From a virus (Duplodnaviria; Heunggongvirae; Uroviricota; Caudoviricetes), in IMG/VR virus record IMGVR_UViG_3300034072_000647: DNA of 64,000 nt, one strand, 5' to 3'. The stretch's first letter is position 1. Every line of letters begins with the position of its first letter. The notes under the pieces are model-generated. The model saw nothing but the letters and a program-made list of their open reading frames with translations. It did not search any database and was not told the origin of the DNA. A program made the position numbers and the translations under genes. This document shows, piece after piece, positions 30,806 through 46,972 of the stretch.

Positions 30806-30846
30806 AATAAGCCCGCCGGAGTATTTCCAGCGGGCTTTTATTTTAT
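30806..30846. terminator. Bidirectional intrinsic terminator between convergent genes
   Basis: AAGCCCGC...GCGGGCTT flanked by an A-run and a T-run. Confidence 0.65.
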
Positions 30847-31076: not shown

Positions 31077-31298
31077 TCTCCGGTAACTCTAATGTGATAC
31101 CTCCGACTCCTTCAATACGCATAACGTCTCCTTTCATAACATGAAAAATATCTACCCACGCCTTGAGCTGACAGTATTCCTCGAACTCGAAGACGGAACC
31201 GTCTGAAAGATACATCTTTATCATAGAGACGCAGTATACACGAAAATAGGGTCCGTGTCAAGAACGAAAAAAGGCGAGTCCGAAGACTCGCCTTTCTT

Positions 31299-31598
31299 TT
31301 ACATGAACTGATGAACAATCCAAGCGATACCGAGAATGATAAACGGCCCAATATAAGCCAGAACAACCTTGTCCCAATCAGTAGGACGATCGTCTTGCTT
31401 GTAGTCTGTCTGTCGGGCCATGACTCCGACGACCATAGCTACACCAACACTCCAGGCAATGCCAATAGCTGGAAGCCCAAAAGGCACCATAAACCACAGC
31501 CACATTACCGAAAGTACCCAGCCCTTAATCAGGAACTCAAGGAACGCTAGAGCAATAAGCCCTAGCACTCCTGCGACACCTAGCGTAAAGGTCTTCAT
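31299..31598 (-). CDS. Membrane protein (3 TM)
   Basis: Hydrophobic ORF. Confidence 0.5.
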   Translation of the reverse strand: MKTFTLGVAGVLGLIALAFLEFLIKGWVLSVMWLWFMVPFGLPAIGIAWSVGVAMVVGVMARQTDYKQDDRPTDWDKVVLAYIGPFIILGIAWIVHQFM

Positions 31599-32401
31599 TA
31601 CTTGCTACCGTTCAGAGGTACATTGATGAAGGGAACACCTGCACCGTTTCCGCCCATCACAGTGCTAGGAACATCACCATTCCAGGTCTTGATGGCCAGC
31701 TCCTGAACTTCAAGTTCACGAAGACGCATCGCCAAAGGATTGCTCGCCGCCGCAGCCTTAGCCTGCATAGCCTTAGCCTCACCTTCTGCACTGATAACAG
31801 CCTGGTTAGCCTCTTCCTGGATCTTCACAGTGTTGTTCTTAGCCGCAATACCCTTCTGGACGGCAATTTCCTTCGCCTCAACCGCATCCATGAACGCTTC
31901 GGAGAACGAAGTTCCCGTAAGGCTGTATTCATCCAGCCGGATACCCTTAGCAAGCAGCTGCTTGGTCAGTTCGTTCTGAATGTTGGCTTCAACGATGGAA
32001 CGCTTTGCGATGATATCTACAGCGCGCCAACGACCGATTTCGTTCTTTTGCACGCTATAAAGCAGCTGAGGAACTACGCGGTCCTTCCATTCCGTATTGT
32101 AGGCACGGTATACCTTGGCGGCCTGTCCTGGGATCAGACTAACCGTAGCTACGGACTCCACGGTGATCTGCTGAATGTCAGCAGTTGGAGTAGTCAGCTT
32201 ACTGTCCATCTTCTGACCGGTGGTATCCATAACGAGAATATCCGTCGACCACGGCTCATACCACTGGAAGCCCTTGATCGGGGTATCTTCGACTTCACCG
32301 TAAACCTTACGGAGGCCAACAGTGCCGTCGTCAATCTGAGTACAGGCACCCAGCGACATGGCCGAGGCAGCGAGGAGGGCGGCGGCAAAAATCTTCTTCA
32401 C
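31598..32401 (-). CDS. SPFH/band-7 (prohibitin/HflC-like) lipoprotein
   Basis: Has a signal peptide with an LGAC lipobox. The core is SPFH-like and the C-terminal half is a coiled coil (EANQAVISAEGEAKAMQAKAAAA). Confidence 0.65.
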   Translation of the reverse strand: MKKIFAAALLAASAMSLGACTQIDDGTVGLRKVYGEVEDTPIKGFQWYEPWSTDILVMDTTGQKMDSKLTTPTADIQQITVESVATVSLIPGQAAKVYRAYNTEWKDRVVPQLLYSVQKNEIGRWRAVDIIAKRSIVEANIQNELTKQLLAKGIRLDEYSLTGTSFSEAFMDAVEAKEIAVQKGIAAKNNTVKIQEEANQAVISAEGEAKAMQAKAAAASNPLAMRLRELEVQELAIKTWNGDVPSTVMGGNGAGVPFINVPLNGSK

Positions 32402-32592
32402 TTATTCAATTCCTTCAAAGTTTCAGTAAGTTCACGGAGGTCTGCAATCTTCGCGTCAAGTTCCCGTTTTTCCTTGGCACGAGTCGTAAGGATGTGATCG
32501 TATCCCCACTTCAAAATTAAATATAATGCGTACAGCACGATAGCTACCGCTAGACATGCAAACGTCAGAAGAATTAGCGTTTTAACAAACAC
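32398..32592 (-). CDS. Small membrane protein with coiled-coil tail
   Basis: ORF. Confidence 0.5.
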   Translation of the reverse strand: MFVKTLILLTFACLAVAIVLYALYLILKWGYDHILTTRAKEKRELDAKIADLRELTETLKELNK

Positions 32593-32998
32593 TACTTAGC
32601 CTCCAATTGAGATTGTTAAGCTGGGCGGCAAAATACTCTGCCTTAGCTGCGTCCTTTGGGTTAAGCCTAATCTTGAAAAAGATTTCTTTCTCCTCTTCAG
32701 AGAGCTTATCTAGCTTTAACCACTCTAGAGCAAGCCTGGCTGTCTTTTTACTAAACCCGGCGTCTATGATTAGAAAAGAAATAAGTGCTTTATCACTTAA
32801 AGAAGTTTCGGAGAATGTCGACAACCACGCCTCCCAGCATTTGCTGTTCCATCTTGTATTCGCAGAAGTCTGCGTATAGCCGATCAATATCCTGATCGGT
32901 AAGATGTGTAAAGTCTGCGTAGACTTCGACAATGGCATCCTTATAGTCGTCAGGAGTTGCCCGAAGGCCTTGGCAAGCCTTGAAAACTTCTGCCTCAA
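32582..32998 (-). CDS. Hypothetical protein (frame overlaps 32793-33003; C-terminal half protein-like, no internal ATG)
   Basis: Long ORF in an alternative frame. Only the part downstream of 32793 looks like genuine protein sequence. Confidence 0.3.
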   Translation of the reverse strand: MRQKFSRLAKAFGQLLTTIRMPLSKSTQTLHILPIRILIGYTQTSANTRWNSKCWEAWLSTFSETSLSDKALISFLIIDAGFSKKTARLALEWLKLDKLSEEEKEIFFKIRLNPKDAAKAEYFAAQLNNLNWRLSSVC

Positions 32999-33003
32999 TC
33001 TGC
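32793..33003 (-). CDS. Hypothetical acidic protein
   Basis: ORF downstream of a conserved promoter/leader. The start is uncertain: a TTG sits 6 nt after GGAGA, and an ATG (MQIEAEV) follows. Confidence 0.4.
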
Positions 33004-33080
33004 ATGAATGTGATGGGGTCCAATGTCGTTCTCCGTTCTTGATGACTCATTATAATAAAAATCGGCAAGCAAGTCAACAC

Positions 33081-33362
33081 TCAATGCAAGGTAGGCTCAT
33101 AATTCACAGCTTCTGACAAGAAGTTAATAGGAGCCCAATAATCTCCATACTCATGTACCCAATCCGCAAGCCAGTCGGATACTCTAACCATTTTAGGGCT
33201 AGAAGATTTCAGCTCACTATTAGAGTTGTTACTAATGTACTTCTTGGCATCTGCGTAAGAACGATGGAAGCTAGCTCCGAATTTGGTTCCGGATTTAGTC
33301 CACGGCACTCCGTAGAGCCAATGAGTATTGGGCACAGTATAAGTATGTTCAGATAATTGCAC
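33081..33362 (-). CDS. Hypothetical protein (93 aa)
   Basis: ORF. Confidence 0.5.
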   Translation of the reverse strand: MQLSEHTYTVPNTHWLYGVPWTKSGTKFGASFHRSYADAKKYISNNSNSELKSSSPKMVRVSDWLADWVHEYGDYWAPINFLSEAVNYEPTLH

Positions 33363-33467
33363 TGATAAGTTCCTTTATTCCTATAATAGCCGTGGCTAGA
33401 AGGAGAAAGATGTACATCATCGTTACAAGTGGGAAGGTCGGCTTCCCTGCGTCACGGATAAGTCTAG

Positions 33468-33638
33468 TTACCCTCCGCGCAATCTGGATATTTTCGTACT
33501 CTTCCATGTGACTGTTCGCTTATCTTTCTTCTTTTTACCACATCTGAGACAGACTTTCTGGACGGAGTAGTCAAAACCTTCTAAATATGTATACTCGTCT
33601 CTAAAGTCGTGCCCTTTGATTAAACATTTAAGATTCAT
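33468..33638 (-). CDS. Small zinc-ribbon protein
   Basis: Started at an internal Met. Contains CLRCGKKKK. Confidence 0.4.
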   Translation of the reverse strand: MNLKCLIKGHDFRDEYTYLEGFDYSVQKVCLRCGKKKKDKRTVTWKSTKISRLRGG

Positions 33639-33921
33639 TCGGCACCTTGACCCTATAAAGTGGGTCATCCTTACTTATAAATTCAGAAATAACTACTTCA
33701 ACGCCGGCTTTTTCAAGGAAGATTTGCTCTTCGGCTTCTTCCTGACTGAAGTAGACCTCTAGTGGTTGATCGGCATCCAAACACATCCAACCCAGCAGCG
33801 TTACCTTTCGCTGGGGGATGAATACTACCGCTTTTTCTGAAATATTATACTTGCGACCCCTGGGGAGATTGTCCCACTCGGCTTTAGTAATCCTACGCCT
33901 AATAACTCTGTATCTGGCCAT
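33628..33921 (-). CDS. Hypothetical protein
   Basis: Started at an internal Met after the conserved leader. Confidence 0.5.
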   Translation of the reverse strand: MARYRVIRRRITKAEWDNLPRGRKYNISEKAVVFIPQRKVTLLGWMCLDADQPLEVYFSQEEAEEQIFLEKAGVEVVISEFISKDDPLYRVKVPNES

Positions 33922-34801
33922 AAAATCTCCTATTGATGACTCATTATACGCCAACTAAACATGTGAGTCAACACGTAACTTTGGAAGTGCTTGAAATGCG
34001 GTGGTCGGCGCACAGCAAAATGGGCAGCAACCCGAAAGTTGCTGCCCATGCCCCGGCAAATTCGTATTACGGGTTGATCCGGCCTGAACTTCTGCGCTTC
34101 AGGTCTTTAGGTGGGTTAATTACTCCGCTTGTTACCTCCTCAGATATTTCCCGCGAGGACGGGCCGGTTCTCCGGTATAAGGCAGTTTTAACTTCTGCCA
34201 AAGTAGACACATTTTGAGGACCAAGGAGACTTATGACGTAATCTCAGCTATCTCAAGGCTGCACCATGCCTAAACTGAACGTGAGGTCGCTCACCACCTG
34301 CTCCTCACCAACCGCATAGCCGGCCTTGACCCGCGGTTCCCGTCTAATTGTCGTCTGCGGCCGCGAACCGGACCACAAAATCCTACTAAGCCGCTAAGCC
34401 TAGATTTACCGTTAGTCTCTTACATGAACTTGTTCGGCAATCCTTAATGGTACGTGAAGTGTCTCGACCACGCACATCCGCTTTGTTCTACACAACAAAG
34501 ACCGTCTCTCTTTAGGCTAGAGCCGCCTATCAGGGTTAACTACCCCAATATGAATCAGGAGTTGAGGTCGTCTTCGATTACACCGCGTACGTCGGAAACC
34601 TCTTTCATCGTCGGGTCGTTGATCTCCTGAACTGTTAAACCGAGCCGGAGGTTAGTCCGGGGAATTCTTTGACTGGTCACAGGCAATTTTTCCTAGGATG
34701 CCAGCAATCGCAGTAGTAACAAGTTTGCTCCACGATTTAGCCCAGCTTGTAGCGGAGATCAACCCGCGTCTGGATTAAGGAGCCTCTATCTTACTTTCCA
34801 C

Positions 34802-34871
34802 TTCTCGGAACTCTGGTGGTGCGTTAGGGAATCGAACCCGACATGATATGAAGCCTATAGAACTTCCATGC
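34802..34871 (-). tRNA. Degenerate tRNA-like element (T-arm GGGTTCGATTCCC, CCA end, truncated anticodon region)
   Basis: Lies inside a 1.9 kb ORF-free island. Confidence 0.3.
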
Positions 34872-35083
34872 TATCTACAAACCTTTTACTCTCCTAACAT
34901 CACTTCTAGACAGAAAGGCCTTCCCGTTCTAGGTTACTGATAGTCAAGCGATAGTCGCACCAAAATCATATTATATAGAGTCAGGCTGGTCAGCATTGCC
35001 AGCGAAATACTCTAATTCTCGGAGCTGTTCGAGGAGTCGTTTTTAACGCCCGGTTAAACTACTGAATCTATATAATATGCGCG

Positions 35084-35152
35084 TTTGCAGGCTGGGACTC
35101 GAACCCAGACTCCCGATCATAGGCCGGGGTGCTGCCGTTACACTACCTGCGT
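35084..35152 (-). tRNA. tRNA-like element (anticodon hairpin CCCGG-CCTATGA-TCGGG; no CCA)
   Basis: T-arm CTGGGTTCGAGTCCCAG and a D-arm-like GTG..CAC. Confidence 0.3.
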
Positions 35153-35484
35153 CCCTCGCGAAGGGTTGACCGAGCATTTAAGCGCTACTACTCGATCGAA
35201 CAGATACAGACGCTTAGCGACTGTGCTGCATGTACGGGTTCTTCGCAAGAGTCCCGTTCTCTTGACAGATTGCGTTTAACGTGCCATCTGCAAACCACAT
35301 TGCTAGCTTAACGGGGACTCGAACCCTCTTACTTAACGTAACCAACCCTGGCAGCTAGACTTCCTCATTCTATATCCGAGAGGCACAGACCCTGGGTTTC
35401 ATCCCATTAATATCAGTCTTCGGGAGAGTTAATTACCACTCACAACTAAGCAACACCAAATGTTAAGTGCCTGTTGCCACACTT

Positions 35485-35557
35485 TTCTTGATGTAGGAAT
35501 CCAACCTACCTTTATTCCGGTTTAAATCCGGATTGACTCGCAGAATCATAATCAAGA
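35485..35557 (-). tRNA. tRNA-like element with anticodon loop ATTTAAA (UUA, ochre-suppressor-like); T-loop TTGGATT
   Basis: Perfect hairpin TCCGG-ATTTAAA-CCGGA. Acceptor TCTTGAT/ATCAAGA. D-stem GATT/AATC. The T-loop deviates (G56). Confidence 0.3.
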
Positions 35558-35918
35558 CACTGGTTTATCACGTACGCCTCCTTGGAGGTTTCTCTTGCAA
35601 TCCGCTTCTAGCCAGCATGTCGCCATCAGCCCGATAAGCTAACCCTCAATTACTAAGACATATGAGCCAGTGCAGGGTCTGGTGGTTAATAACTCATATG
35701 AATATCGGCTGTTTCGCGTCCCACGACATTAACACCTTCTCAGTGCCACCAATTGATGTAGGCTCCGATGCACATAACTTTCTCGGATTTAATAGCGTAT
35801 AATATTGTGCTAACCTATAAGACGCTCGGCAAGGCACCCTGTGGATACCGGCCTAACTTCGTATTCGCGTCTTGATGTCTCATTATATCAACTTTAGGGT
35901 CTCAAGTCAAGAATTATT

Positions 35919-36128
35919 TTAGAAACCCATCAACTTCGCAACTTCGATCCGGTAATTTGCGGGATCAAACACTCCCGACATAGGCTCTTCATCACCTTCT
36001 AGGAAAGAGAAGCCATCATACTTACCGTCTTCACTGACTTCACACGTGGCTACGAACACTTGCTGTCCGTAATTGTCCTTTGCACCGAAACCGAAAGGAC
36101 TCTCTGAAAACTCAATAATTCGAACCAT
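35919..36128 (-). CDS. Hypothetical protein (69 aa)
   Basis: Started after the conserved leader. The N-terminal extension in the ORF track is a translation of the promoter region. Confidence 0.5.
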   Translation of the reverse strand: MVRIIEFSESPFGFGAKDNYGQQVFVATCEVSEDGKYDGFSFLEGDEEPMSGVFDPANYRIEVAKLMGF

Positions 36129-36177
36129 GTCTTTCTCCGTTCTTGATGACTCATTATAACGTGGCGGGCAGCTAAAG

Positions 36178-36597
36178 TCAACACTCATTTGAGTTAATGA
36201 TGAAAACTTCTCTAACATAGCAGCGACGCGGACCAAACTCGTCAATATGAGCAATTTCATACTGATCCATGGCGTAGGCATTTTGCACAGTTACCACATG
36301 ACCCGAAGTCCAGACCATATAGTGAACATTTGGCATAGCATAGAGCGAGTGCCACTTATGCAGTGTCATGCGCTCTGGCTGAGGAAGCTGAGTGTAGTTA
36401 ACACCCAACTTATTCATGGCCTCAGCAACCTGCTCAGGGTATGTCTTACCTCCATGCCGCTTTTGCCAAGGCATAAGACTACGCTTGATAGCATCAGTAG
36501 CCTTCTCAAAAGTTACGCTCGCAGCCACAGCTGTAGCCAGAACACCGCAAATAGGCTTCTTAGAAAGTTCTTCTTTCCAATCCGAAGGATACTTCAT
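36178..36597 (-). CDS. Hypothetical protein (139 aa)
   Basis: Started at MKYPSDW after the conserved leader. Confidence 0.5.
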   Translation of the reverse strand: MKYPSDWKEELSKKPICGVLATAVAASVTFEKATDAIKRSLMPWQKRHGGKTYPEQVAEAMNKLGVNYTQLPQPERMTLHKWHSLYAMPNVHYMVWTSGHVVTVQNAYAMDQYEIAHIDEFGPRRCYVREVFIINSNEC

Positions 36598-36654
36598 GCT
36601 CTGTCTCCGCTCTTGATGCCTCATTATACTGAGACGGACAGAGAAAGTCAACAA

Positions 36655-36798
36655 TCAATCTAAGCGATGCCAAGCTTCAAAGTATTTATAAAAACAGTCA
36701 ATGAAAGCTTGATCTTCCTCGTCATCTAGCCATTTCGGCTCGTCCATGAAACCTTGAATGGTCTCAGGCGTCAGATGGGGCCACTTCTCCTTGCGCAT
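36655..36798 (-). CDS. Hypothetical small protein
   Basis: The start is uncertain. Confidence 0.3.
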   Translation of the reverse strand: MRKEKWPHLTPETIQGFMDEPKWLDDEEDQAFIDCFYKYFEAWHRLD

Positions 36799-36976
36799 CC
36801 CCAAGTAGACGTACACCGCTAAGCTCAACCCACTCATAGTGTAAATCCCATACCAAGTCTACTAGCCAGTCCTCGAAACTATGAGGCTTGCCTTCCAGAA
36901 TCTTTTTGATACCCTCTACAGAAGGGTGAGTTTCGTCTTGTGCCAGTTCTTTCTGGATGTATTCATATTCAGTCAT
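36764..36976 (-). CDS. Hypothetical protein
   Basis: Started at MTEYEY. ATGA overlap with the upstream gene. Confidence 0.45.
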   Translation of the reverse strand: MTEYEYIQKELAQDETHPSVEGIKKILEGKPHSFEDWLVDLVWDLHYEWVELSGVRLLGDAQGEVAPSDA

Positions 36977-37163
36977 TGTAATATCTCTGTAGCTTGCCAG
37001 TGTGCTTATCGAAATCAGTATCGTATTCATCTGCAAGCATTTGCACTTGAGCGACAAATTCGCTCGGATTAGTAATATTTCCTAGCAGTACGTCCAGCAC
37101 GTCTTCTGGATCAGTGCCCTTAGGCATCTGTGCTGCTATCCAATTCGCCTTCTTGAAGTTCAT
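36969..37163 (-). CDS. Hypothetical protein (64 aa)
   Basis: GGAGAT SD 8 nt upstream. Confidence 0.5.
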   Translation of the reverse strand: MNFKKANWIAAQMPKGTDPEDVLDVLLGNITNPSEFVAQVQMLADEYDTDFDKHTGKLQRYYND

Positions 37164-37470
37164 CCTGGAATATCTCCGCTAAGGCTGTATGGAGTCGTTT
37201 CAACTCCAGTTTACCCGTTTTAGCCAGGCTAGGAGCCTCGATTTCGAGCCAGCGCTCGATATCAGCTACAAGCTCTTCTTTCTTGACGATGGCCTCGCCA
37301 GTTTTAGTAAGTCGCTGAGGAGTCTGATACACATGCGCCGCCGCTAGTTTTGCGATTACGGAACGCGCACTTTTACCGATACGAGCAGCAATAGCATCTA
37401 CTGTTTCTCGCGTCGGGTTAGCTTCATACTCAGCTATAATCTGTTTTGTTAGTTCTTCTGTATAGCTCAT
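37120..37470 (-). CDS. Hypothetical protein; paralog of 38030-38359
   Basis: Shares an N-terminal R/K-SVIAK motif region with the 38030-38359 product. Confidence 0.5.
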   Translation of the reverse strand: MSYTEELTKQIIAEYEANPTRETVDAIAARIGKSARSVIAKLAAAHVYQTPQRLTKTGEAIVKKEELVADIERWLEIEAPSLAKTGKLELKRLHTALAEIFQDELQEGELDSSTDA

Positions 37471-37865
37471 TTCCTACTCGTCCACCGATAACTTAGGTAC
37501 GCCTCTAGCGCACGTGCTTCCATTTCCCAAGGACACAGGAAATAATCGTCCATAAGCTTGCCGCAAACATAGGGCTTTTCCTCCCAGTGATATAGATACC
37601 CTTCCGGGATTGGTCCCCCATCAATAAGCCTACCCTCTAGGTATTGCTTGAGGTGAACCATTTCGTGCCCAAGAAGCTCGATATCCGTTGATACAGCATT
37701 CTTTGACAGATTAATCTCGAACTCGGAATCATCAATGCGAAGACATTCAGCGCTAACATCGCTCAGCTTTTTACGCTTGATTTCCAGAGTGAAATCTTTC
37801 TCAATGTTTAGAACATTAGTCAGAAAGACTGCCATCTTCACTAGCTTCTTTGGTCCGGTTATCAT
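37467..37865 (-). CDS. Zinc metallopeptidase (HExxH; SprT/ImmA-like)
   Basis: Contains LGHEMVHLKQY. Confidence 0.55.
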   Translation of the reverse strand: MITGPKKLVKMAVFLTNVLNIEKDFTLEIKRKKLSDVSAECLRIDDSEFEINLSKNAVSTDIELLGHEMVHLKQYLEGRLIDGGPIPEGYLYHWEEKPYVCGKLMDDYFLCPWEMEARALEAYLSYRWTSRK

Positions 37866-38001
37866 CCCATTTATCCAGCTCTATAAGATATTTCAGAAAT
37901 TCCGCGTCGTCCATATCACTAGGGAACAGCCGGGTTGCCAGTTGCTTAAAGTAATCTAACCTGTGCATGGACCCTCCGTTTATTGAGGGTCCATTATACA
38001 A
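37816..38001 (-). CDS. Hypothetical protein (61 aa)
   Basis: ORF. Confidence 0.4.
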   Translation of the reverse strand: MYNGPSINGGSMHRLDYFKQLATRLFPSDMDDAEFLKYLIELDKWDDNRTKEASEDGSLSD

Positions 38002-38029
38002 CAGTCAACAGTAGAAGTCAATAGCTAAG

Positions 38030-38359
38030 TTAGGCATCGGTAGCATTGACCGCAATGAGATAATTGGTCAGCTTTTCGAGGTCGGTAACAGTCATGCTAG
38101 GCAGCGAGGGCAGTTCCGGGCCATAGTAAGCACCGTAGAACTCCTTGATAATGTCAGCCTTGGTCTTCTTCTTGACAGCCGACTTCTTCTTATCGCCAGG
38201 GGCCTTCGTCTCGTAAGGAATTTCGAGCGACTTCGCCTTCGCGATAACACTTCGGACACCAATATTGTGCTTTTCTGCAAATACGGTAGCAATCTCATAG
38301 TTCATCTTCGGCACAGACTTGAGTTCTTCAATCTGAGCGTCGGTATAAGTCTGTGCCAT
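38030..38359 (-). CDS. Hypothetical protein; paralog of 37120-37470
   Basis: Shares the GVRSVIAKAKSL motif with the 37120-37470 product. Confidence 0.5.
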   Translation of the reverse strand: MAQTYTDAQIEELKSVPKMNYEIATVFAEKHNIGVRSVIAKAKSLEIPYETKAPGDKKKSAVKKKTKADIIKEFYGAYYGPELPSLPSMTVTDLEKLTNYLIAVNATDA

Positions 38360-38417
38360 AGTTATTTCTCCGTTCTTGATGACTCATTATATCGCGATAA
38401 GCGGGTCAAGTCAATAC

Positions 38418-38609
38418 TTAGTTAAAGCATTCCTCGATACGAGTCAAGCCCGCTTCTAGCCCCTTGAGAGCATCTTCTAGAGCATTAACCCAAATGTCTA
38501 AGTCCTCTGTACGTACCTTGGTAAAATCCTCTCCAAAACGCTTAGCATCTGCTAGCGCCTTCAAGATACGGGCTTCTGCATCATCTTCAATCAAGGTCAA
38601 GTCCTCCAT
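38418..38609 (-). CDS. Hypothetical protein (63 aa)
   Basis: ORF. Confidence 0.45.
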   Translation of the reverse strand: MEDLTLIEDDAEARILKALADAKRFGEDFTKVRTEDLDIWVNALEDALKGLEAGLTRIEECFN

Positions 38610-38868
38610 AATCCCATTCCATAATTAGAAAGTCAATAGCGCTTACCTCTTTTGGAGTAAGGCTCGCTCTATTTACTGGCATCTTCCACAGCCAATCACG
38701 AGTGAGCTTAAAGCCTCTACCCTCTAAGTAAGTGATAGCTTGGCTTTCATCAGTTCCCCACTCGTCTCTGAGGTAATCAGGCGCTGTTGGCATTTCGGTG
38801 AATCTCGTTTCTAAGAGTGTAAAGGCTTTTAAGTAGCTGAGGGTGGCCGTCCTCTCTAAACCACTCAT
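38587..38868 (-). CDS. Hypothetical protein (93 aa)
   Basis: ORF. Confidence 0.45.
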   Translation of the reverse strand: MSGLERTATLSYLKAFTLLETRFTEMPTAPDYLRDEWGTDESQAITYLEGRGFKLTRDWLWKMPVNRASLTPKEVSAIDFLIMEWDYGGLDLD

Positions 38869-39229
38869 CGTTAACAGGACCTAGACCAACGGCGGTGGTA
38901 GTGGTACACTCAAACACAGTATAGCCACAATCATCCACAATAGTAGCACCCATGTACGGCTTATAAAGTTCATATAAGTGTTCCAGGTCCTGTACAGTAT
39001 CTACTACTAGAGCGATCTTACGGGCATCGTCACCGTTACGGTAGTCATCCATAGTATCGCAATAATCATACCCTAGAAATCCTGGGGCTTCTTCATGTTC
39101 TGAATTAGTGCGATCCTCTGCATCCCACCAAGCATGTAGGTAAGCGTGTCCTGCCTGAGCGGCTAGCTTACCTTCAAATTTCATCTGCGAGAGAGTTTCT
39201 CGGCAGAAAATGGCATACATCTTAATCAT
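38777..39229 (-). CDS. Peptidyl-tRNA hydrolase, PTH2 family-like
   Basis: KMYAIFCRETLSQMKFEGKLAAQAGHA and KIALVVD...GYTVFE...TTTAVGLGP follow the PTH2 pattern (KMVLVVRTDL.MGKGKIAAQCSHA ... DAGYT ... GIGP). Confidence 0.6.
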   Translation of the reverse strand: MIKMYAIFCRETLSQMKFEGKLAAQAGHAYLHAWWDAEDRTNSEHEEAPGFLGYDYCDTMDDYRNGDDARKIALVVDTVQDLEHLYELYKPYMGATIVDDCGYTVFECTTTTAVGLGPVNDEWFREDGHPQLLKSLYTLRNEIHRNANSA

Positions 39230-39576
39230 ACAGTTACAACCACCGCTAGCTTTCGGGCCTCAATGTCATCACCGCAGAGACGGTCAAGAGCCTCTTCCTC
39301 CGTATTAGCGACAACCGTAGTAGTCACTCGGAAAGACCTCTTCCAGCTAGTGATAATTTCTGCGCCTGCCCGCTTGAAAGGTTCCACGAAACCTAGAGCT
39401 TCTGACTCCTTGGTAAATTCGGCTATCTTATTTTTAAGTTTAGTCTCCTCTACATATACCATAAACTTATGAGTAGGCTGCACCCATTCGTTATAGTCAT
39501 TGTGGGAATATGGAAAAGGTTCGGTTCGTTTAATTATAATCTTCAAAGCAATGCTCCAATAATAAGTCCAGCCCAA
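39226..39576 (-). CDS. Hypothetical protein (116 aa)
   Basis: ORF. Confidence 0.5.
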   Translation of the reverse strand: MGWTYYWSIALKIIIKRTEPFPYSHNDYNEWVQPTHKFMVYVEETKLKNKIAEFTKESEALGFVEPFKRAGAEIITSWKRSFRVTTTVVANTEEEALDRLCGDDIEARKLAVVVTV

Positions 39577-39679
39577 GCGAGGCAGAAAATAAGTCCGCCA
39601 GCTTTATAGCCCCAGTGAATGGGCTTCAGCTCCGGGCTAGGCCAATGGTCAATAATATAGTCTACGGGATGAATATCGG

Positions 39680-39871
39680 TCAAGCGCCCCATTTCGTGTC
39701 CTTCCAGAGTAGATTTGAAAGATCGGCATTGAGTTGTGCATTACGCTTCTCAAGATACTCGATGTAGCTTACGATGATTTCAGCACGAGTCTTCTCTTTG
39801 CCGGGATACCAACTTTTAGCATCTTCTGCGGCAATACGACGAAGATCATCAATTACTTCATTAATCGTCAT
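39680..39871 (-). CDS. Hypothetical protein
   Basis: Started at MTINEV after a GAGGAG SD. Confidence 0.45.
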   Translation of the reverse strand: MTINEVIDDLRRIAAEDAKSWYPGKEKTRAEIIVSYIEYLEKRNAQLNADLSNLLWKDTKWGA

Positions 39872-40145
39872 ATCCGTGCTCCTCGTCCATACACTGCTTG
39901 CAGTGCCAATCACCGCGCTCATCTTGCTCTTCGATAGGCATAGTCCAACCACAGCCTTGACAGGTAAACCACAAAGAGTCTACCAGAGTGCAAATATTTC
40001 CCTCATGAGCATCGAAAAACTCCTGCTCAAGTACACCTTCGTCAATCATCTTGTCAAAAAGACTGAAGACGTCTTCACAAGTTCCGCCCTGAACTTCAAG
40101 GTGGAACCAGTCTATAATCTTCTGTCGAATATCGTCCGAAAGCAT
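39861..40145 (-). CDS. Hypothetical zinc-finger protein (94 aa)
   Basis: Contains CQGCG...CKQC. Confidence 0.5.
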   Translation of the reverse strand: MLSDDIRQKIIDWFHLEVQGGTCEDVFSLFDKMIDEGVLEQEFFDAHEGNICTLVDSLWFTCQGCGWTMPIEEQDERGDWHCKQCMDEEHGYDD

Positions 40146-40206
40146 AAAAAATCTCCGTGTCTTGATGCCTCATTATATAAGACATAAGACACGGAGTCAA
40201 GAGCTT

Positions 40207-40461
40207 TTATAGGCGTTGCTGCCTCTTTTCCCGCGCCTCTTTCTCTAGCTTTTCATGCTCGATAGCGGTAAGAGCTGCACAAGTAACTACAAGTCCCCCA
40301 ATCAGTGCGAAGATAAATAGAAAACCCCACCAACCCAGAGAAATCGCGAAAGCGATGACAGCAATTACTAGAGTTAGTACAATAGCGGTTGCTAGTGTAC
40401 CGAGAGTGAAATAGGCCGGAATACGAAGGTATAAAGGCCCATCTGAAAGAAATTTAAACAA
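40207..40461 (-). CDS. Small membrane protein
   Basis: ORF. Confidence 0.5.
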   Translation of the reverse strand: MFKFLSDGPLYLRIPAYFTLGTLATAIVLTLVIAVIAFAISLGWWGFLFIFALIGGLVVTCAALTAIEHEKLEKEAREKRQQRL

Positions 40462-40789
40462 GAGTGACCTCCACAGTGGTAGTAGCTTTAAGTTCCTGGA
40501 ATTTAATAATACGCTTGATGTTACATTTAGTATACGTCTTGACGCTTTCTTGGACTAGAAACTCTTTTAGTTGCTGCTCCGTATCAAAATATTTCAGGGT
40601 TTCGTACCTGACAGTGGAGGTGTCATATCCAGTGCCTTCTGTGTAGCTATTTTCATAAACTACTGCGTATTGATCTTTCAACTTAATTTTCCCGTAATCG
40701 TGGCCTCTAGGGCACGGACCGAATTTACATATTGGACAAGACCTAGGGTAAGGCTTGCCAGATAGACGAATGTCCTCTCTACAAGTCAT
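40454..40789 (-). CDS. Hypothetical Cys-rich protein (111 aa)
   Basis: ORF. Confidence 0.5.
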   Translation of the reverse strand: MTCREDIRLSGKPYPRSCPICKFGPCPRGHDYGKIKLKDQYAVVYENSYTEGTGYDTSTVRYETLKYFDTEQQLKEFLVQESVKTYTKCNIKRIIKFQELKATTTVEVTLV

Positions 40790-40950
40790 TTGCGAGCCAT
40801 ATTGTAGAGATTATCCAGAGCACCTTCCAACTTAGTAAGATGGACGATAAATTCAGGGTCCAGATTGTCCAGACGAACTACTTCATCCAGAGCCTTAGTG
40901 GCGATATTGCGGTACGTGCGAGCCTGGAGTTCGTTATTGAGAAAAGCCAT
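40786..40950 (-). CDS. Hypothetical small protein (54 aa)
   Basis: Unlisted ORF MAFLNNELQART... ATGA overlap with the downstream gene. Confidence 0.4.
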   Translation of the reverse strand: MAFLNNELQARTYRNIATKALDEVVRLDNLDPEFIVHLTKLEGALDNLYNMARK

Positions 40951-41195
40951 TAAGGAATCCTTTTAAAGAGATTGAAAATAAAAGAAATACAGAAGGCAAT
41001 AAGAGCAATGACACCTACTTCCTGTCCGAAGAAGCGCATAATAACCGATACTACCCCTAGAGATACCATAGCCAGTATAGCTAAGCCTAACCCCAACATA
41101 AAGGTATCGAAAAAGAAATTACCTTTAAAGCGACTTAAAAACGGTGGTAGATAGGCAAACACGTCGTTCGAACTCCTCTTCTGTAATTTCTTCAT
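40950..41195 (-). CDS. Small membrane protein
   Basis: Started at MKKLQKR. Confidence 0.45.
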   Translation of the reverse strand: MKKLQKRSSNDVFAYLPPFLSRFKGNFFFDTFMLGLGLAILAMVSLGVVSVIMRFFGQEVGVIALIAFCISFIFNLFKRIP

Positions 41196-41294
41196 TCCAG
41201 GAACGCTCAAAGTTCCTGCGATCCCAACCATCCGGGTCAAAGATCACTAGCGAGCGATATTTCTCAGTCTTCATCCATTCAGCCGAGGTTTTCT

Positions 41295-41966
41295 TCATAG
41301 TGGCTCCATAATAATAACTTCTACACCCGCGACTTTCTTGACTACGCGCTTGTGTGTAGGCTTTGGCGGTTCGGGTACAGGATCTGGCTTAGGCTCAACA
41401 TTATCGAACATCCAAAAAGGCTGAGCACCGTCCTTTAGATTACCAGATTTATCCCAGTCAGGATAGTTCCAGAAGTCTAAGCGTAGCTTTATATCTACTA
41501 CAGGCTGCTTTGGGGTAGCGGAAACTACCTCTTTAATAGAGGCTTTCTGTATAGCATTATCACGAAATTTTTCGTTTATTCGCTCTACAATTTCACGCTT
41601 TTTTGCCACTTCTCGTCTAGTAGCCGGACTTGTACGACTACTGGGTCTAACCAGTCGTGTGCTTCTAGGTAGCTGGCACTCAGGAACACGCATATTATAT
41701 AGAGTACCTAGGAACTGGTAAGCCTTATCATAGCAATCAATATCAACTTTGCCGGACCCGAAAAGCAACTTCTCTTCGTACCAAACTCCTCGGTAACCAA
41801 TCACTGGACGGCCATATATGCTAGCCATAGCGCCGGTAGGACCTGAGGGCAGTAAATCAGTGTTTAACAATTGCCGTGAGGATAACGCAGTGGCTCTCTG
41901 TGGATTGGAAGAATTCGACATCGGCTGTCGTGAGCTTTTTGTCTCGTAAGTATCGTCCCAAATCAT
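41295..41966 (-). CDS. Hypothetical protein (223 aa)
   Basis: ORF. Confidence 0.55.
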   Translation of the reverse strand: MIWDDTYETKSSRQPMSNSSNPQRATALSSRQLLNTDLLPSGPTGAMASIYGRPVIGYRGVWYEEKLLFGSGKVDIDCYDKAYQFLGTLYNMRVPECQLPRSTRLVRPSSRTSPATRREVAKKREIVERINEKFRDNAIQKASIKEVVSATPKQPVVDIKLRLDFWNYPDWDKSGNLKDGAQPFWMFDNVEPKPDPVPEPPKPTHKRVVKKVAGVEVIIMEPL

Positions 41967-42029
41967 CTAACATCCTCTGCCCTCTAGCTTCGAGATTGTG
42001 GGCGTATATACCGCCCGTAGTGAAAATCT

Positions 42030-42239
42030 TCACAGGTCCCTCCAAATAAGCCAAAGAAAGAAAATAAATCCACCAATTCCTGTCGCCCACTGGGCAGCTA
42101 CAGGTCCCAGCAGCCATGCTAGCGGATAATAAATGACTACGAGTAAAACTATTACTACTAAGTAGTAAACAACGGCAAGAATACCCATCACTAGGAGGAA
42201 TATTCCTAGTAACTTTAGTTTACGAACAGACTCGCTCAT
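42030..42239 (-). CDS. Small membrane protein
   Basis: Started at MSESVRKL. Confidence 0.45.
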   Translation of the reverse strand: MSESVRKLKLLGIFLLVMGILAVVYYLVVIVLLVVIYYPLAWLLGPVAAQWATGIGGFIFFLWLIWRDL

Positions 42240-42418
42240 GCGCTCTCCCACAGCCACTGGATAACATCCTCGGCTTCCAATTCGTGCCAATCTTCCCTAT
42301 TACCTGATGCAATATCCTCCAGATACTTATCCGCTGCAATATTTATGTCACGAATAAAGGCATCACGGCCTGCCTCAACTGCTGCGATCGCCTTAATCTG
42401 CCACTGTTCCAACTTCAA
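42236..42418 (-). CDS. Hypothetical protein (60 aa)
   Basis: ORF. Confidence 0.4.
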   Translation of the reverse strand: MKLEQWQIKAIAAVEAGRDAFIRDINIAADKYLEDIASGNREDWHELEAEDVIQWLWESA

Positions 42419-42605
42419 TCTCCTTAAAAAGCTTCACGTTCTTTTCACCGAAAAGTTCTTTGAACGTATCGCAGGCTCTGGTAGCTGCTGGTTTCTGGTC
42501 ATAAAACGGATGGGTAACCCCCTGCTCCGCTAGCACCCAACCTTTACGATCCAGCTTATTTATCATAATCGCGTAACTCATGGGAACAAAACTACTCCTG
42601 CACAA
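42393..42605 (-). CDS. Hypothetical protein (70 aa)
   Basis: ORF. Confidence 0.45.
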   Translation of the reverse strand: MCRSSFVPMSYAIMINKLDRKGWVLAEQGVTHPFYDQKPAATRACDTFKELFGEKNVKLFKEIEVGTVAD

Positions 42606-42799
42606 GATACTCGTTTTGGGCTAATGGGCTTAGACCCGCTGAAAGTTTCCTTACCATTAACTACCTTCCAGATAGAGTAGTTAGGTACAGCAGGTTGAGG
42701 GGTATCCAGCCCTTGGCTTAGCCAGGTCCAGCACCTTTTTGCGAACTGCCATTCTACATCGAACTTATTAGTTCGGATGCGAGTTTCATTTTCAGCCAT
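42578..42799 (-). CDS. Hypothetical protein (73 aa)
   Basis: ORF. Confidence 0.45.
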   Translation of the reverse strand: MAENETRIRTNKFDVEWQFAKRCWTWLSQGLDTPQPAVPNYSIWKVVNGKETFSGSKPISPKRVSCAGVVLFP

Positions 42800-42847
42800 G
42801 TAATCTCCTGTCTTGATCGCTCATTATACCGCGTTCAGCAGCTAGAG

Positions 42848-43081
42848 TCAAGACCGATTTTGAGCATTGAACAATTCAATTAAGTAAGAGTTAAATTGAC
42901 GGCTAATATGTGCGTCTGCTTCTCGCTTCTTCCGCCATCGTTCACGCTCAGCCAGTTCTTTAGCCGAGGGGAAGGTTCTGAAGTTCTGCGATGTATCAGG
43001 ACCGTAGTCTCCGTCATCGCCTTCGTCCGATTCAAAGTTCATAATCCTCCGGTATTTGTCCGTTCTTCTTAAGTTCTTCAA
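42848..43081 (-). CDS. Hypothetical protein (77 aa)
   Basis: ORF. Confidence 0.45.
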   Translation of the reverse strand: MKNLRRTDKYRRIMNFESDEGDDGDYGPDTSQNFRTFPSAKELAERERWRKKREADAHISRQFNSYLIELFNAQNRS

Positions 43082-43421
43082 TAGCCCATTGGCGAGCCAT
43101 AGCTTCTGTAGGGGGCATACCTACTTCAATACGATCCATAATTTCACGAGTCCTCAGCATGACGAGGGCGGCGTAAGCTCGTTCTGGTGTAAATACTGGC
43201 TTCTTAGGAAATTTACCCATTCGACAGGCATGTCGAATCCATTCTCCATCATTATACTCAGCAAGATACCAGCCGGAGCTGTCCTCAAGCCATTTAACCG
43301 TACATCCGCAAGTATCACACTTAACTCTGGTAGGTTTGTGTCCTCCACGAGATTTACCTCCCCAAGGATTTAGTCCACCGAACATAAGGTTGTCAGTAAA
43401 AAGGTCTGCATATTCACCCAT
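43032..43421 (-). CDS. Hypothetical zinc-binding protein (129 aa)
   Basis: Contains CDTCGC...HAC. Confidence 0.5.
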   Translation of the reverse strand: MGEYADLFTDNLMFGGLNPWGGKSRGGHKPTRVKCDTCGCTVKWLEDSSGWYLAEYNDGEWIRHACRMGKFPKKPVFTPERAYAALVMLRTREIMDRIEVGMPPTEAMARQWAIEELKKNGQIPEDYEL

Positions 43422-43629
43422 TTTTCACCCAAAATGATCTAGTGAAACAATCCCAGATAGCACGATTAGCTGGACCGATATAGGTTCCTGCAGGCCATCC
43501 GTACCTGACTATAATCGTGACCCCATCTTCTAGCCAGTCGGGACGTTTACCACCATCCGTCTTATGTTCAGTCCAACCTTCCGCCATATAGCTTTCCAAT
43601 ATTTTACTCATGTATAATATCCCATACAC
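43414..43629 (-). CDS. Hypothetical protein (71 aa)
   Basis: ORF. Confidence 0.45.
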   Translation of the reverse strand: MYGILYMSKILESYMAEGWTEHKTDGGKRPDWLEDGVTIIVRYGWPAGTYIGPANRAIWDCFTRSFWVKNG

Positions 43630-43831
43630 TATGATAGATGGTTTCGAAATCGCGTGTAGTTTCGTACAGTTGTTTAATACGCTCGATATTAGCCCAGTAA
43701 TTAAGCTCTATGGACATTTTGGTATCCATTTCAGCATAACGTTCTAGGGCTGAACGTTCTCGTTCAGATTTAGTATAGTCATCGTAGCCTTCGTTATTGT
43801 GCATACGACACCAATCAGCCCACTCACCCAC
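43604..43831 (-). CDS. Hypothetical protein (75 aa)
   Basis: ORF. Confidence 0.45.
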   Translation of the reverse strand: MGEWADWCRMHNNEGYDDYTKSERERSALERYAEMDTKMSIELNYWANIERIKQLYETTRDFETIYHSVWDIIHE

Positions 43832-43980
43832 TAACCTTCTCCCAAAATTTTAGCTCTTCAATCTCAGCGTCTGGAGGAATATGATCTTTTACAGCATCAT
43901 AGACGTTATCCCTCTCGCAAAGACTAGGGTCAAAGTCTTCGTCACTTACGTAAAAAGCCAGCTCAACAATTGCTACATAT

Positions 43981-44433
43981 TTAGCCATTCAAAATTACCT
44001 CCGCTTCTAGAATATCTAGCTCGGTCAATCCAACCATAAAATCCGTATATACTACCGGCTGATCTGGTATAAAATCATCATCGTCATCGAGACACACGAA
44101 CTTCGTGACCTCTGGATGTTTATTTAGCCATAGTTGAACCTGATAACCACGTCCCTGATGAGCCTCCGTAAATTCTGGTGTCCAGCTATGACAAGTGCGC
44201 CAATCCTCATGCAACGGCACCCCAAGATCGCGGAGACGATCTCTCGTGTTCTCATCACTTCGCCAGGTACTAGACACCACGACTTTAGCATCTGTAGAGT
44301 CACACAACTTTTTAAGAAGCTCGATCTTATCCTGAGGGATTGTACGGTTGCGTGGAATATAGGAACTGTTCCAAAGATCAGGCCCAGATAATATCACTCC
44401 GTCCATGTCTAAAAAGATAATCTTCACGTACAT
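43981..44433 (-). CDS. HAD-superfamily phosphatase-like protein
   Basis: Started at MYVKIIFLDMDGVILS (HAD motif I). Confidence 0.6.
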   Translation of the reverse strand: MYVKIIFLDMDGVILSGPDLWNSSYIPRNRTIPQDKIELLKKLCDSTDAKVVVSSTWRSDENTRDRLRDLGVPLHEDWRTCHSWTPEFTEAHQGRGYQVQLWLNKHPEVTKFVCLDDDDDFIPDQPVVYTDFMVGLTELDILEAEVILNG

Positions 44434-44692
44434 AACCCCATTCATCATATGGATCTGTTGGAATGATCCTGTTATCAAACTCAGGCAAAATCATAGGAAT
44501 AATACCTACTAGAGTTCTGCCATTTTCATCGTGCAATCGTCGATAGCCAAAAGCTTGCCTAAGTCTACTAGCACATCGGTATCCGTCAGTGGTTGAAGGT
44601 CTGTGCTTACATCTACAAGCTAAAGAGTCTACAAAGTCTGAGCCATACATAATGACTTCGTTGGGATATGGAAATCCACATAAAAGCTTCAC
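44378..44692 (-). CDS. Hypothetical protein (104 aa)
   Basis: ORF. Confidence 0.45.
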   Translation of the reverse strand: MKLLCGFPYPNEVIMYGSDFVDSLACRCKHRPSTTDGYRCASRLRQAFGYRRLHDENGRTLVGIIPMILPEFDNRIIPTDPYDEWGYVREDYLFRHGRSDIIWA

Positions 44693-44756
44693 GGCTGTCT
44701 CCTTTACAGCCCATTATACGAAAAAAGACGGCCCCAGTCAAGAGCCGTCTTCATCG

Positions 44757-45032
44757 TTACCTAATTTGTTTCAATTCGTATACGGGTTGATATTCATACA
44801 CCTCTACGATTAAATCTTGCGGGTTTAAGTCTAAAGATTCCATAATAAGTCGTGCTTTAATAATCACAGGATCATAGATATTAAAAGCCTGAGCCTTATT
44901 AGTAAGGGTTTCTCGTTCGTACGTGACTGCTATACCACCTATTGAGAATATGACGGTAACATCTGGCTTAGGTCCGTTAAACCCAGACACAGAGCCATGA
45001 GTGATTTTTACAAGAAACTCAGCTGACATCAT
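44757..45032 (-). CDS. Hypothetical protein (91 aa)
   Basis: ORF. Confidence 0.45.
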   Translation of the reverse strand: MMSAEFLVKITHGSVSGFNGPKPDVTVIFSIGGIAVTYERETLTNKAQAFNIYDPVIIKARLIMESLDLNPQDLIVEVYEYQPVYELKQIR

Positions 45033-45243
45033 TCAAGCCTTTCATAGTTAAAACTGCACGAATCTTTTCCACGTCAAATCCACCTCGATCAGGCACATCA
45101 AACCACCAAAGGTCCGAGTCTTCAATTCTTTCCAGAACTGAATTTAACACATGCCATAGAGAATCCCTCTCTTTTTTCGTCTGAGAAAGAGACTTCTGTA
45201 GAGATACAATAGCAGCTGAGAATTCTTCAGGTGATTGCGACAT
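45019..45243 (-). CDS. Hypothetical protein (74 aa)
   Basis: ORF. Confidence 0.45.
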   Translation of the reverse strand: MSQSPEEFSAAIVSLQKSLSQTKKERDSLWHVLNSVLERIEDSDLWWFDVPDRGGFDVEKIRAVLTMKGLNDVS

Positions 45244-45592
45244 AGGTCATTCCTATATAAGTAAGAGAGTGAACAAATTGATCGAAACCGGTCAGAATCC
45301 AGAACTCATTATGAGTCGTTGCAGTCCAGCCTTTGCGCTTGTTTAGGTTCATCTTGAACCAATCCATATGATAATGGATAATGAATTCACCCAACGCTAT
45401 TAGCGCCGCCCATGGCACGCTAACAAAGAAGAGCAGGATCACAAAACTAGCAAGCATATGCTGGCCGGAATGAACAAGTCCACCCCAGTGTCCGTACGTT
45501 CCCTTATTCTGCCACTGATAAGGTGGTTGATAAAGGAAGTCGAAGACGAAATGCTTAAGCGTTAGAAGTGTCAGCAGGAAGAGCATATGCAA
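45227..45592 (-). CDS. Membrane protein (121 aa)
   Basis: ORF. Confidence 0.5.
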   Translation of the reverse strand: MHMLFLLTLLTLKHFVFDFLYQPPYQWQNKGTYGHWGGLVHSGQHMLASFVILLFFVSVPWAALIALGEFIIHYHMDWFKMNLNKRKGWTATTHNEFWILTGFDQFVHSLTYIGMTYVAIT

Positions 45593-45785
45593 GTTCCTTA
45601 TAAATATCTACCCAGTAACCGGCTTTCTGACGCCTTGCAGCATAAATCAGAGCTGCTTCGAAGCTACCCGCATTTTCCGCTAGTGTATGGCGATTAAATT
45701 CTGGCATACCGTTATAGGTGGTTCTGGACAGAACAACATACTGATAGGCACCATCAGAGGGTCTAAACGGCTCAGGTAACATCAA
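45555..45785 (-). CDS. Hypothetical protein (76 aa)
   Basis: ORF. Confidence 0.45.
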   Translation of the reverse strand: MMLPEPFRPSDGAYQYVVLSRTTYNGMPEFNRHTLAENAGSFEAALIYAARRQKAGYWVDIYKELAYALPADTSNA

Positions 45786-45960
45786 TAGTCACCATAGTAT
45801 AAGAGGACCAAGCATCGCCAACTCTGCGATAGACCTGATCACCATAAATGATATCAGCAGCGTTGGTTGCATCGCCAATAGCAATAGCTTCCACCAAACT
45901 ATTCGCACTTTCGTAGTCCCATAGGCCGTTGCCTAAGTCGATCCAGATGGTATATGTCAT
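45772..45960 (-). CDS. Hypothetical protein (62 aa)
   Basis: ORF. Confidence 0.4.
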   Translation of the reverse strand: MTYTIWIDLGNGLWDYESANSLVEAIAIGDATNAADIIYGDQVYRRVGDAWSSYTMVTIDVT

Positions 45961-46165
45961 GAAAATCCATGTTCCTTATGATATTGTCTAGAATTGGGAC
46001 AAGATTGCGAGGGTTCTCAGTTAGGGCTTCTTGGAGTTCGGCTTTAATCAGGAGATTTTTAGCCTGATGTAGTGATTTACCCTCAGCGCGAAGTTGCTTG
46101 ATGTTTTGTGAATTATACCAACTACTTCCGCTCATAGGGGTCTCCACAGAATATACACTCATCAT
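45899..46165 (-). CDS. Hypothetical protein (88 aa)
   Basis: ORF. Confidence 0.45.
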   Translation of the reverse strand: MMSVYSVETPMSGSSWYNSQNIKQLRAEGKSLHQAKNLLIKAELQEALTENPRNLVPILDNIIRNMDFHDIYHLDRLRQRPMGLRKCE

Positions 46166-46487
46166 GACACCAATCTAATTCGTCATTATACACACACTTT
46201 TTAGTGGGTGAAGTGGGGCAATCCCAGGCCCAGTAGTCAGTATCTACACTGAGCTCGGAACTGTTGATGTCTCCTAGATGCGAAGCGACGAGTTTCTGCT
46301 TGGCTTCTTTAGCTGCGCGGCGAAGCCCGCGAGCCTGTGCTTCCAGCCTCTCAGCATCTTGCTCCCAGCCGATAATAGTTCCCATGCTAGTCATATATTC
46401 CTCCACTACTTCTTCGATAGCTTTTATCATTTCATGCGTAAGAAGTACCATCGAAATACTCCATCTTACTATAGTGGCCGAAAGCAT
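46122..46487 (-). CDS. Hypothetical protein with C-terminal zinc finger
   Basis: ORF. Confidence 0.5.
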   Translation of the reverse strand: MLSATIVRWSISMVLLTHEMIKAIEEVVEEYMTSMGTIIGWEQDAERLEAQARGLRRAAKEAKQKLVASHLGDINSSELSVDTDYWAWDCPTSPTKKCVYNDELDWCHDECIFCGDPYERK

Positions 46488-46623
46488 CCATAGTGTAGAT
46501 AGCCACTGCTAGTGGTGCGTTATCTCCTTGCATGATGCTATCTCCATATTCCTGAATGTCATCATCTTTGATGCGCTTAGAAACACTATAGCCATCTTCA
46601 CGGATTTCTACAATATGGATCAT
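46432..46623 (-). CDS. Hypothetical protein (63 aa)
   Basis: ORF. Confidence 0.4.
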   Translation of the reverse strand: MIHIVEIREDGYSVSKRIKDDDIQEYGDSIMQGDNAPLAVAIYTMDAFGHYSKMEYFDGTSYA

Positions 46624-46726
46624 AACCCACGCTTTCTTTTATACCAGGGAATAAACTCTTCGTAATCCTCAGGATTACGACTTACGGGCGGATTGCCGTA
46701 AAATGACACCATAAAAAGCTCAAGAC

Positions 46727-46972
46727 TTACGACCTCAGCGACACCCCACGAGCCTTTTTCAGACCGCGTGACTTTGGTCCCGATTTCCATAGTTGAATAA
46801 CCTTCCCCATACTATAGCACATAACCAGAAAAGATAGAATTCCTCCGATGAAAAATCCCATCGCTACAATAAATTTATCGAAGCCTAGCTGGTTTATGAT
46901 AGCTGCTGACCCGCATAGCAGGATAAAAGCCCACAGTGCCGGCAAAAAGCCGTCTTCTAGAGTGTCTCTCAT
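46727..46972 (-). CDS. Small membrane protein
   Basis: ORF. Confidence 0.45.
   Translation of the reverse strand: MRDTLEDGFLPALWAFILLCGSAAIINQLGFDKFIVAMGFFIGGILSFLVMCYSMGKVIQLWKSGPKSRGLKKARGVSLRS

Follow-up and report, generated by a model that had tools for sequence, protein, structure and literature searches.

A Pth2-type peptidyl-tRNA hydrolase gene in a tRNA-rich phage genome

The pth2 gene and its genomic setting

The window, which is the whole 64,000-nucleotide stretch of viral DNA analysed here, has a G+C content of 45.5% and represents phage DNA, since it encodes a large terminase together with other phage families (Table 1). A DNA transfer protein, ThyX and a band-7 gene are also present. 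The pth2 gene lies among small ORFs of no known function, and its ATG start and the TGA stop of the preceding ORF share a four-base overlap (ATGA), an arrangement that suggests translational coupling of the two reading frames. On the downstream side, the Pam3_gp59-like gene was listed as a 93-aa ORF (38587..38868), which would overlap pth2 by 92 nt. The PF23986 match spans residues 26–91 of this ORF and concurs with the 68-aa product of the gene callers; together these place the true start at Met26 (38793), which leaves an overlap with the end of pth2 of just 17 nt. A two-gene system formed by pth2 and an adjoining partner was considered and rejected, because the upstream ORF has no family match in domain and family profile searches and a search of 45 loci showed no Pam3_gp59-like gene in the vicinity of pth2.

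Several lines of evidence identify pth2 as a genuine and correctly delimited gene. The N-terminal consensus MxIKMYAIF is shared family-wide in an alignment of 71 homologues, which contradicts a mis-called start or a chance ORF and supports the assigned start codon as the correct one. A collection of 5.8 billion proteins contains 139 homologues, with E-values down to 1e-65, and PF01981 (PTH2) is present in 120/120 of the homologues among the matches listed; this breadth likewise argues against a chance ORF. Moreover, the identical protein occurs on five metagenomic contigs, independent gene callers agree on the gene boundaries, and the same phage is present in several further metagenome samples. 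The contig to which the window corresponds is a JGI metagenome contig of 115 kb.

The window contains 32 copies of the motif TTGACT-N17-TATAAT against 0.32 expected, counted as consensus matches with one mismatch allowed. Thirty copies lie on the minus strand, and the set spans 1136..58081 (for example, 36623..36651). By its sequence, this set looks like a dense series of strong host-type, perhaps early, promoters placed before small gene clusters and tRNAs. The copy nearest upstream of pth2 (Table 1) and the next copy downstream, at 38386..38414, suggest that host RNA polymerase would transcribe pth2 within a short multi-gene unit.

Translation-related elements are abundant in the window. ARAGORN predicts 32 tRNAs, every one on the minus strand; the main array holds 30, and Rfam adds six more inside it, giving approximately 38 in total, in good agreement with the figure of about 40 in the initial annotation. 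The S21 homologue and the AdoMetDC named there are recovered as well, each through a significant Pfam match. The supported tRNA closest to pth2 is the isolated tRNA-Ile(tat), 3.6 kb away. An ochre-suppressor tRNA-Sup(tta) called by ARAGORN at 35485..35557 (minus strand) is doubtful, because Rfam gives it no support even at E up to 1.

The permuted two-piece tmRNA, missed by ARAGORN and absent from the initial annotation, constitutes an additional translation-related element located 10.4 kb from pth2. Read by eye from 28011..27961, its tag is ANDNDVVAFDEIRLAA*, and ANDNDVVAFDEIRLAA resembles the AANDN...LAA tag that ARAGORN calls in a related viral locus (L048). A 'distant' blastn search of the tmRNA region against phage records returned no match. 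Because the two-piece form is characteristic of Alphaproteobacteria and certain other groups, the tmRNA type offers a hint at the host of the phage.

The tRNA array is interspersed with genes for a phosphoesterase, a macro domain protein, an HD_4-type hydrolase, an RNaseH-like protein and a DUF2828 protein, which are possible candidates for RNA repair or anti-toxin functions. A 192-aa ORF inside the array (11676..12254, minus strand) has a weak partial subtilase match (PF00082, E 2e-6; phrog_3677 'protease') and may be a fragment.

Table 1. Positions of the features in the window, with the number of related loci in which the corresponding gene lies within 10 kb of pth2
Feature	Position	Strand	Evidence or remark	Related loci
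Phosphoesterase, in or beside the tRNA array	353..925	minus	phrog_547	15
Main tRNA array, about 36 tRNAs among small ORFs	1319..16843	minus, same as pth2	ARAGORN and Rfam	
Macro domain protein, in the tRNA array	1997..2455	minus		
HD_4-type metal-dependent phosphohydrolase	2977..3435	minus	RelA/SpoT hydrolase-domain-like, below Pfam cut-off	7
RNaseH-like protein	3819..4379	minus	PF04308	4
DUF2828/DUF7788 protein, 489 aa	8967..10436	minus	PHROGs 'RNA-binding protein'	4
AdoMetDC homologue, bordering the tRNA array	16963..17331	minus	PF02675, E 6.9e-11	10
Nicotinamide phosphoribosyltransferase, NAD salvage	21625..23004	minus		
NMN adenylyltransferase fused to Nudix, NAD salvage	24904..25920	minus		
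Permuted two-piece tmRNA	27961..28335	minus	Rfam RF04321, 85.6 bits (cut-off 47), E 5.6e-15	
bS21 homologue	30180..30377	plus	PF01165, E 1.2e-18; phrog_21469	3
Isolated tRNA-Ile(tat)	35084..35152	minus	ARAGORN; Rfam 34.1 bits (sensitive scan)	
Pam3_gp59-like gene, downstream of pth2	38587..38793	minus	68 aa; PF23986, E 9e-18	
pth2 CDS, Pth2-type peptidyl-tRNA hydrolase	38777..39229	minus	150 aa, ATG start	
Asp100-Cys-Gly-Tyr-Thr104 codons, D-x-G-x-T motif, predicted catalytic Asp	38918..38932	minus	aligns with 1xty D86 and T90	
Lys21 codon, G-K-x-x-A-Q-x-G-H-A motif, predicted catalytic lysine	39167..39169	minus	aligns with 1xty K18	
ORF upstream of pth2	39226..39576	minus	106-aa or 78-aa gene according to gene callers	
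Nearest sigma-70-like motif upstream of pth2 (TTGACT-N17-TATAAT)	40172..40200	minus	likely transcription-unit start, consensus only	
Large terminase	62166..63614		phrog_2, E 1e-43	

Family assignment, fold and predicted active site

The initial annotation read this ORF as a PTH2-type hydrolase of the archaeo-eukaryotic rather than the bacterial kind. Both the exact gene boundaries and the family hold, with the strand, which that annotation left unstated, being the minus strand; Pfam, the PDB profile search, AlphaFold2 and Foldseek all support PTH2. The PF01981 profile scores 40.8 bits (gathering cut-off 23; E 2.9e-10), covering residues 7–122 of the protein and profile positions 5–103 of 115, and PHROG 11824 ('hydrolase') matches with E 7.4e-24. 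A profile of the 71 homologues retrieves seven distinct solved Pth2 sequences from the PDB (E 3e-12 to 6e-6), namely those of M. jannaschii (2zv3), T. acidophilum (1rlk), 24bt, S. solfataricus (1xty), A. fulgidus (1rzw/3erj), P. horikoshii (1wn2) and human Bit1 (1q7s), and this search returns no non-Pth2 family below E 0.01. The HMM of bacterial Pth1 (PF01195) does not match the phage protein even at E up to 10, and neither the sequence searches nor the fold searches of the PDB return a Pth1 structure. Bacterial Pth1 carries out the same reaction, presumably on the same substrates, but is unrelated to the phage protein in fold and sequence. Membership of the Pth2 family is established.

The NCBIfam Pth2 equivalogs place the protein more finely. 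A score above their cut-offs denotes strict orthology to archaeal Pth2, and the phage protein misses both, with 42.2 versus 126 bits for NF003314 and 37.3 versus 82 bits for TIGR00283. At the level of sequence, the protein is a Pth2-family member that falls into a divergent phage subfamily outside the archaeal orthologue group.

The AlphaFold2 model, built on the homologue alignment, is of high confidence (mean pLDDT 90, pTM 0.86) and contains four strands (residues 2–9, 69–76, 95–100 and 110–120) together with helices, in agreement with the Pth2 architecture of four strands and flanking helices (PMC11202043). Foldseek against the PDB yields 13 matches at E no higher than 1e-3, every one of them a Pth2 chain with a target-normalised TM-score of 0.69–0.85, and the next-best match has an E-value of approximately 1. 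The fold is thus shared with archaeal Pth2 (2zv3, 1xty, 1wn2, 3erj) and with human PTRH2/Bit1 (1q7s), as are the motifs G-K-x-x-A-Q-x-x-H-A, D-x-G-x-T and T-A-V-G-x-G-P, the last of which is invariant among the phage homologues. Sequence identity to these archaeal and human structures is only 16–23%. The phage protein is also longer, with 150 aa compared with 115–121 aa, and differs from the archaeal enzymes by an insertion of about 14 residues that follows the first long helix (approximately residues 42–56) and by a C-terminal extension of about 25 residues, where model confidence is lower.

The predicted active site is conserved. When the phage protein is aligned with S. solfataricus 1xty, its residues K21, D100 and T104 fall opposite K18, D86 and T90, respectively, and the phage D-x-G-x-T motif aligns additionally with the D-A-G-H-T motif of 2zv3. 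K18 and D86 are reportedly catalytic in the S. solfataricus enzyme, a result attributed to Fromant et al. in 2005. None of the 71 homologues departs from K21 or D100, and T104 reaches at least 90% conservation, as do G20, Q25, H28, G115, G117 and P118.

The divergent features of the protein bear on what it might do. With the insertion and the C-terminal extension, the substrate preference could differ from that of the archaeal enzymes. Taken further, these same features, the sub-equivalog scores, an identity of 22% to archaeal structures and the phage-specific invariant residues H28, H32, W35 and Y63 of the 71-homologue alignment might reflect a Pth2 fold repurposed as a non-catalytic binder or as an esterase for another substrate, and human PTRH2/Bit1, which has an additional signalling role, would provide a precedent. 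Such a repurposing is highly improbable, because the lysine and aspartate aligned with the archaeal active site are invariant; the T-A-V-G-x-G-P segment is retained too, and the tight linkage of pth2 to tRNA genes in related genomes points to a tRNA substrate.

Linkage to tRNA arrays and proposed function

A scan of IMG/VR identifies 44 loci that encode a Pth2 relative, for which 10 kb on each side of pth2 were examined; dereplication at 90% protein identity reduces them to 31 clusters. Within this range, at least one tRNA is present in 32/44 loci and at least 10 tRNAs in 20/44, and in 17/44 a tRNA is positioned no more than 100 nt from pth2. The corresponding values after dereplication are 20/31, 11/31 and 9/31 clusters. 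Nearly all of these tRNAs (474 of 480) are co-oriented with pth2, and up to 38 tRNAs occur within 20 kb of pth2 in related viral contigs. The gene is embedded within a co-oriented tRNA array in L009, L011, L014, L019, L020, L022, L027, L030, L033, L040 and others. For example, in L030 it (9882–10274) is framed by tRNA-Lys (9434–9519) and tRNA-Met (10282–10358). The arrangement is clearly recurrent, although the individual cases do not represent independent events, because the lineages are related. In the window itself this physical linkage is missing, since the main array is about 22 kb from pth2.

The association of pth2 with tRNAs, S21 and AdoMetDC proposed in the initial annotation is borne out by these loci, in which both protein genes recur within 10 kb of pth2 alongside other genes of the window's array (Table 1). 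Permuted tmRNAs are found within the same distance in L007 and L048. Because pth2 is so often embedded in co-oriented arrays, the linkage argues that the substrate of Pth2 is tRNA and that selection acts on the gene jointly with the tRNAs of the phage.

In the same set of loci, ARAGORN also calls amber-suppressor-like tRNAs(cta), labelled Pyl, in L010 (16505..16575), L022 (19387..19464), L023 (19446..19523) and L048 (5134..5210).

These observations are consistent with a role in tRNA recycling: pth2 probably encodes an active Pth2 esterase that recycles peptidyl-tRNA and N-acyl-aminoacyl-tRNA and so keeps tRNAs usable during infection. Enzymatic activity, substrate range, timing of expression and benefit to the phage are presumptive throughout. 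The gene would be expressed from a host-type promoter within a long minus-strand block of phage genes, and the substrates would be peptidyl-tRNAs dropped from ribosomes or left after ribosome rescue. Their hydrolysis would return host tRNAs and the roughly 38 phage tRNAs to the chargeable pool, supplementing host Pth1. Bacterial hosts already possess Pth1, which is essential, and a need for a second Pth enzyme beside it is assumed here. Pth2 and the tRNA array, joined by the tmRNA and the bS21 homologue, would form a phage-borne set that sustains translation. That the phage remodels host translation, as initially proposed, is a reasonable inference, strengthened by the fact that it also encodes a tmRNA. 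A literature search found no biochemical or genetic test of any phage Pth2.

The same chemistry has been considered in the context of host defence. In a counter-defence role, Pth2 would hydrolyse the N-acetyl-aminoacyl-tRNA produced by GNAT toxins of the TacT, AtaT or ItaT type and thereby make the tRNAs rechargeable. The idea stems solely from the analogy with Pth1, which reverses TacT acetylation (PMC9241777). N-blocked aminoacyl-tRNA is the standard Pth substrate (PMC11202043), which fits such a role, as does the company that pth2 keeps near tRNA arrays with candidate RNA-repair or anti-toxin genes such as those for the HD_4-type hydrolase, the macro domain protein and the phosphoesterase. 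Against it, general tRNA recycling already accounts for the same chemistry, no GNAT toxin or other cognate defence system has been identified, and the literature search turned up no experiments that link a phage-encoded Pth to defence or counter-defence. A counter-defence function is unlikely.

A broader form of this idea treats the whole Pth2 lineage as the anti-defence part of a mobile 'tRNA-array cassette' that counters effectors blocking or damaging tRNA 3' ends. The putative cassette would comprise tRNAs, Pth2, the phosphoesterase, the HD hydrolase and AdoMetDC, sometimes with bS21 and a tmRNA, and the effectors would be acetylating GNAT toxins and perhaps other sources of acyl or peptidyl adducts. 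This extension is speculative and, like the narrower role, improbable; if it were true, phage Pth2 would be an anti-defence protein and not a housekeeping supplement.

Pth2 might also act after tRNA cleavage, freeing nascent peptides from peptidyl-tRNAs that anticodon nucleases have cut on the ribosome and, with the replacement tRNAs and the tmRNA of the phage, releasing jammed ribosomes. Clean-up of nuclease-cleaved peptidyl-tRNA was explicitly proposed for jumbo-phage PTH2 by Iyer et al. 2021 (PMC7824862). Replacement tRNAs and a tmRNA are indeed both encoded in the window, and in phage phiCbK an RtcB-like RNA ligase is located about 5 kb from the pth2 homologue, gp165. However, the window proteins scanned include no RNA ligase, Pnkp or RtcB, the action of Pth2 on ribosome-bound or cleaved peptidyl-tRNA is itself an assumption, and the proposal overlaps in part with general tRNA recycling. 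For the protein studied here, a clean-up role of this kind is quite unlikely, and recycling of peptidyl-tRNA in support of the phage and host tRNA pools is the preferred reading.

Comparison with known phage Pth2 systems

Megablast of positions 37000..41000 against 50,697 phage records produced no match, so that, judged by DNA, the window lacks any close relative in culture. By tblastn, 39 phage records match the Pth2 protein with E-values down to 1e-22, at 31–40% identity over 82–93% of its length. All 39 belong to giant siphophages of Caulobacter and Brevundimonas, comprising the phiCbK group, the CcrSC/Bertelyvirus group, Gurke and Kikimora, and many already carry the label 'putative peptidyl-tRNA hydrolase'. 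Protein gp165 of phiCbK, a cultivable relative, and its orthologues in Dolichocephalovirinae and Bertelyvirus constitute the same protein family, carried by phages that are likewise rich in tRNAs. Neighbours of gp165 include a NUDIX-domain protein, a nicotinate phosphoribosyltransferase, a band-7 protein, the RtcB-like protein and an HD-domain protein. The phosphoribosyltransferase, the NMN adenylyltransferase-Nudix gene and the band-7 gene provide loose synteny with the window, although the NAD-salvage pair stands directly beside gp165 in phiCbK and 14–17 kb from pth2 in the window. There is no similarity at the nucleotide level, and the window additionally encodes bS21 and the permuted tmRNA. 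Judged from gene content, because the NAD-salvage and band-7 genes are also found in the window, it is a distant relative of the phiCbK group.

Beyond this group, comparison of viral protein structures detects Pth2 in Agrobacterium phage Atu_ph07, Klebsiella phage RaK2, Mycobacterium phage Myrna and Synechococcus phage S-CBWM1, as well as in several giant eukaryotic viruses and fowlpox virus. Published accounts describe PTH2 in RaK2 (ORF188; PMC3622015), in a CbK-like Erythrobacter phage (PMC9127768), in T4-like phages of Alphaproteobacteria, where it occurs together with AdoMetDC (PMC10783043), and in Sinorhizobium phage AP-J-162, which also encodes 66 tRNAs and a tmRNA (PMC11242549). In jumbo phages of groups 2 and 3, PTH2 is of the archaeo-eukaryotic rather than the host type (Iyer et al. 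2021; PMC7824862). Phage PTH2 genes have therefore been described before, and the gene in the window is one further well-supported case. The present analysis adds numbers for how often this Pth2 lineage is embedded in tRNA arrays, as well as a tmRNA in the same genome.

The closest parallel in overall composition is found in cluster C mycobacteriophages (Bxz1/Myrna group), large phages whose tRNA arrays carry PTH2-like genes together with a tmRNA (PMC5966550; PMC4131195). Myrna Pth2 matches the window protein by fold, but its lineage is distant and is not found by tblastn at E 1e-3. These phages infect hosts of another phylum. The tmRNA of the window is of the permuted two-piece type. Jumbo phages, RaK2, Atu_ph07, AP-J-162 and giant eukaryotic viruses similarly encode an archaeo-eukaryotic-type Pth among many translation-related genes; the Pth2 proteins of jumbo phages and giant viruses belong to other subfamilies, with 13–20% identity to the window protein in fold alignments. 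Collectively, large tRNA-rich phages repeatedly carry a Pth of the archaeal/eukaryotic rather than the bacterial type, often accompanied by a tmRNA and other translation factors.
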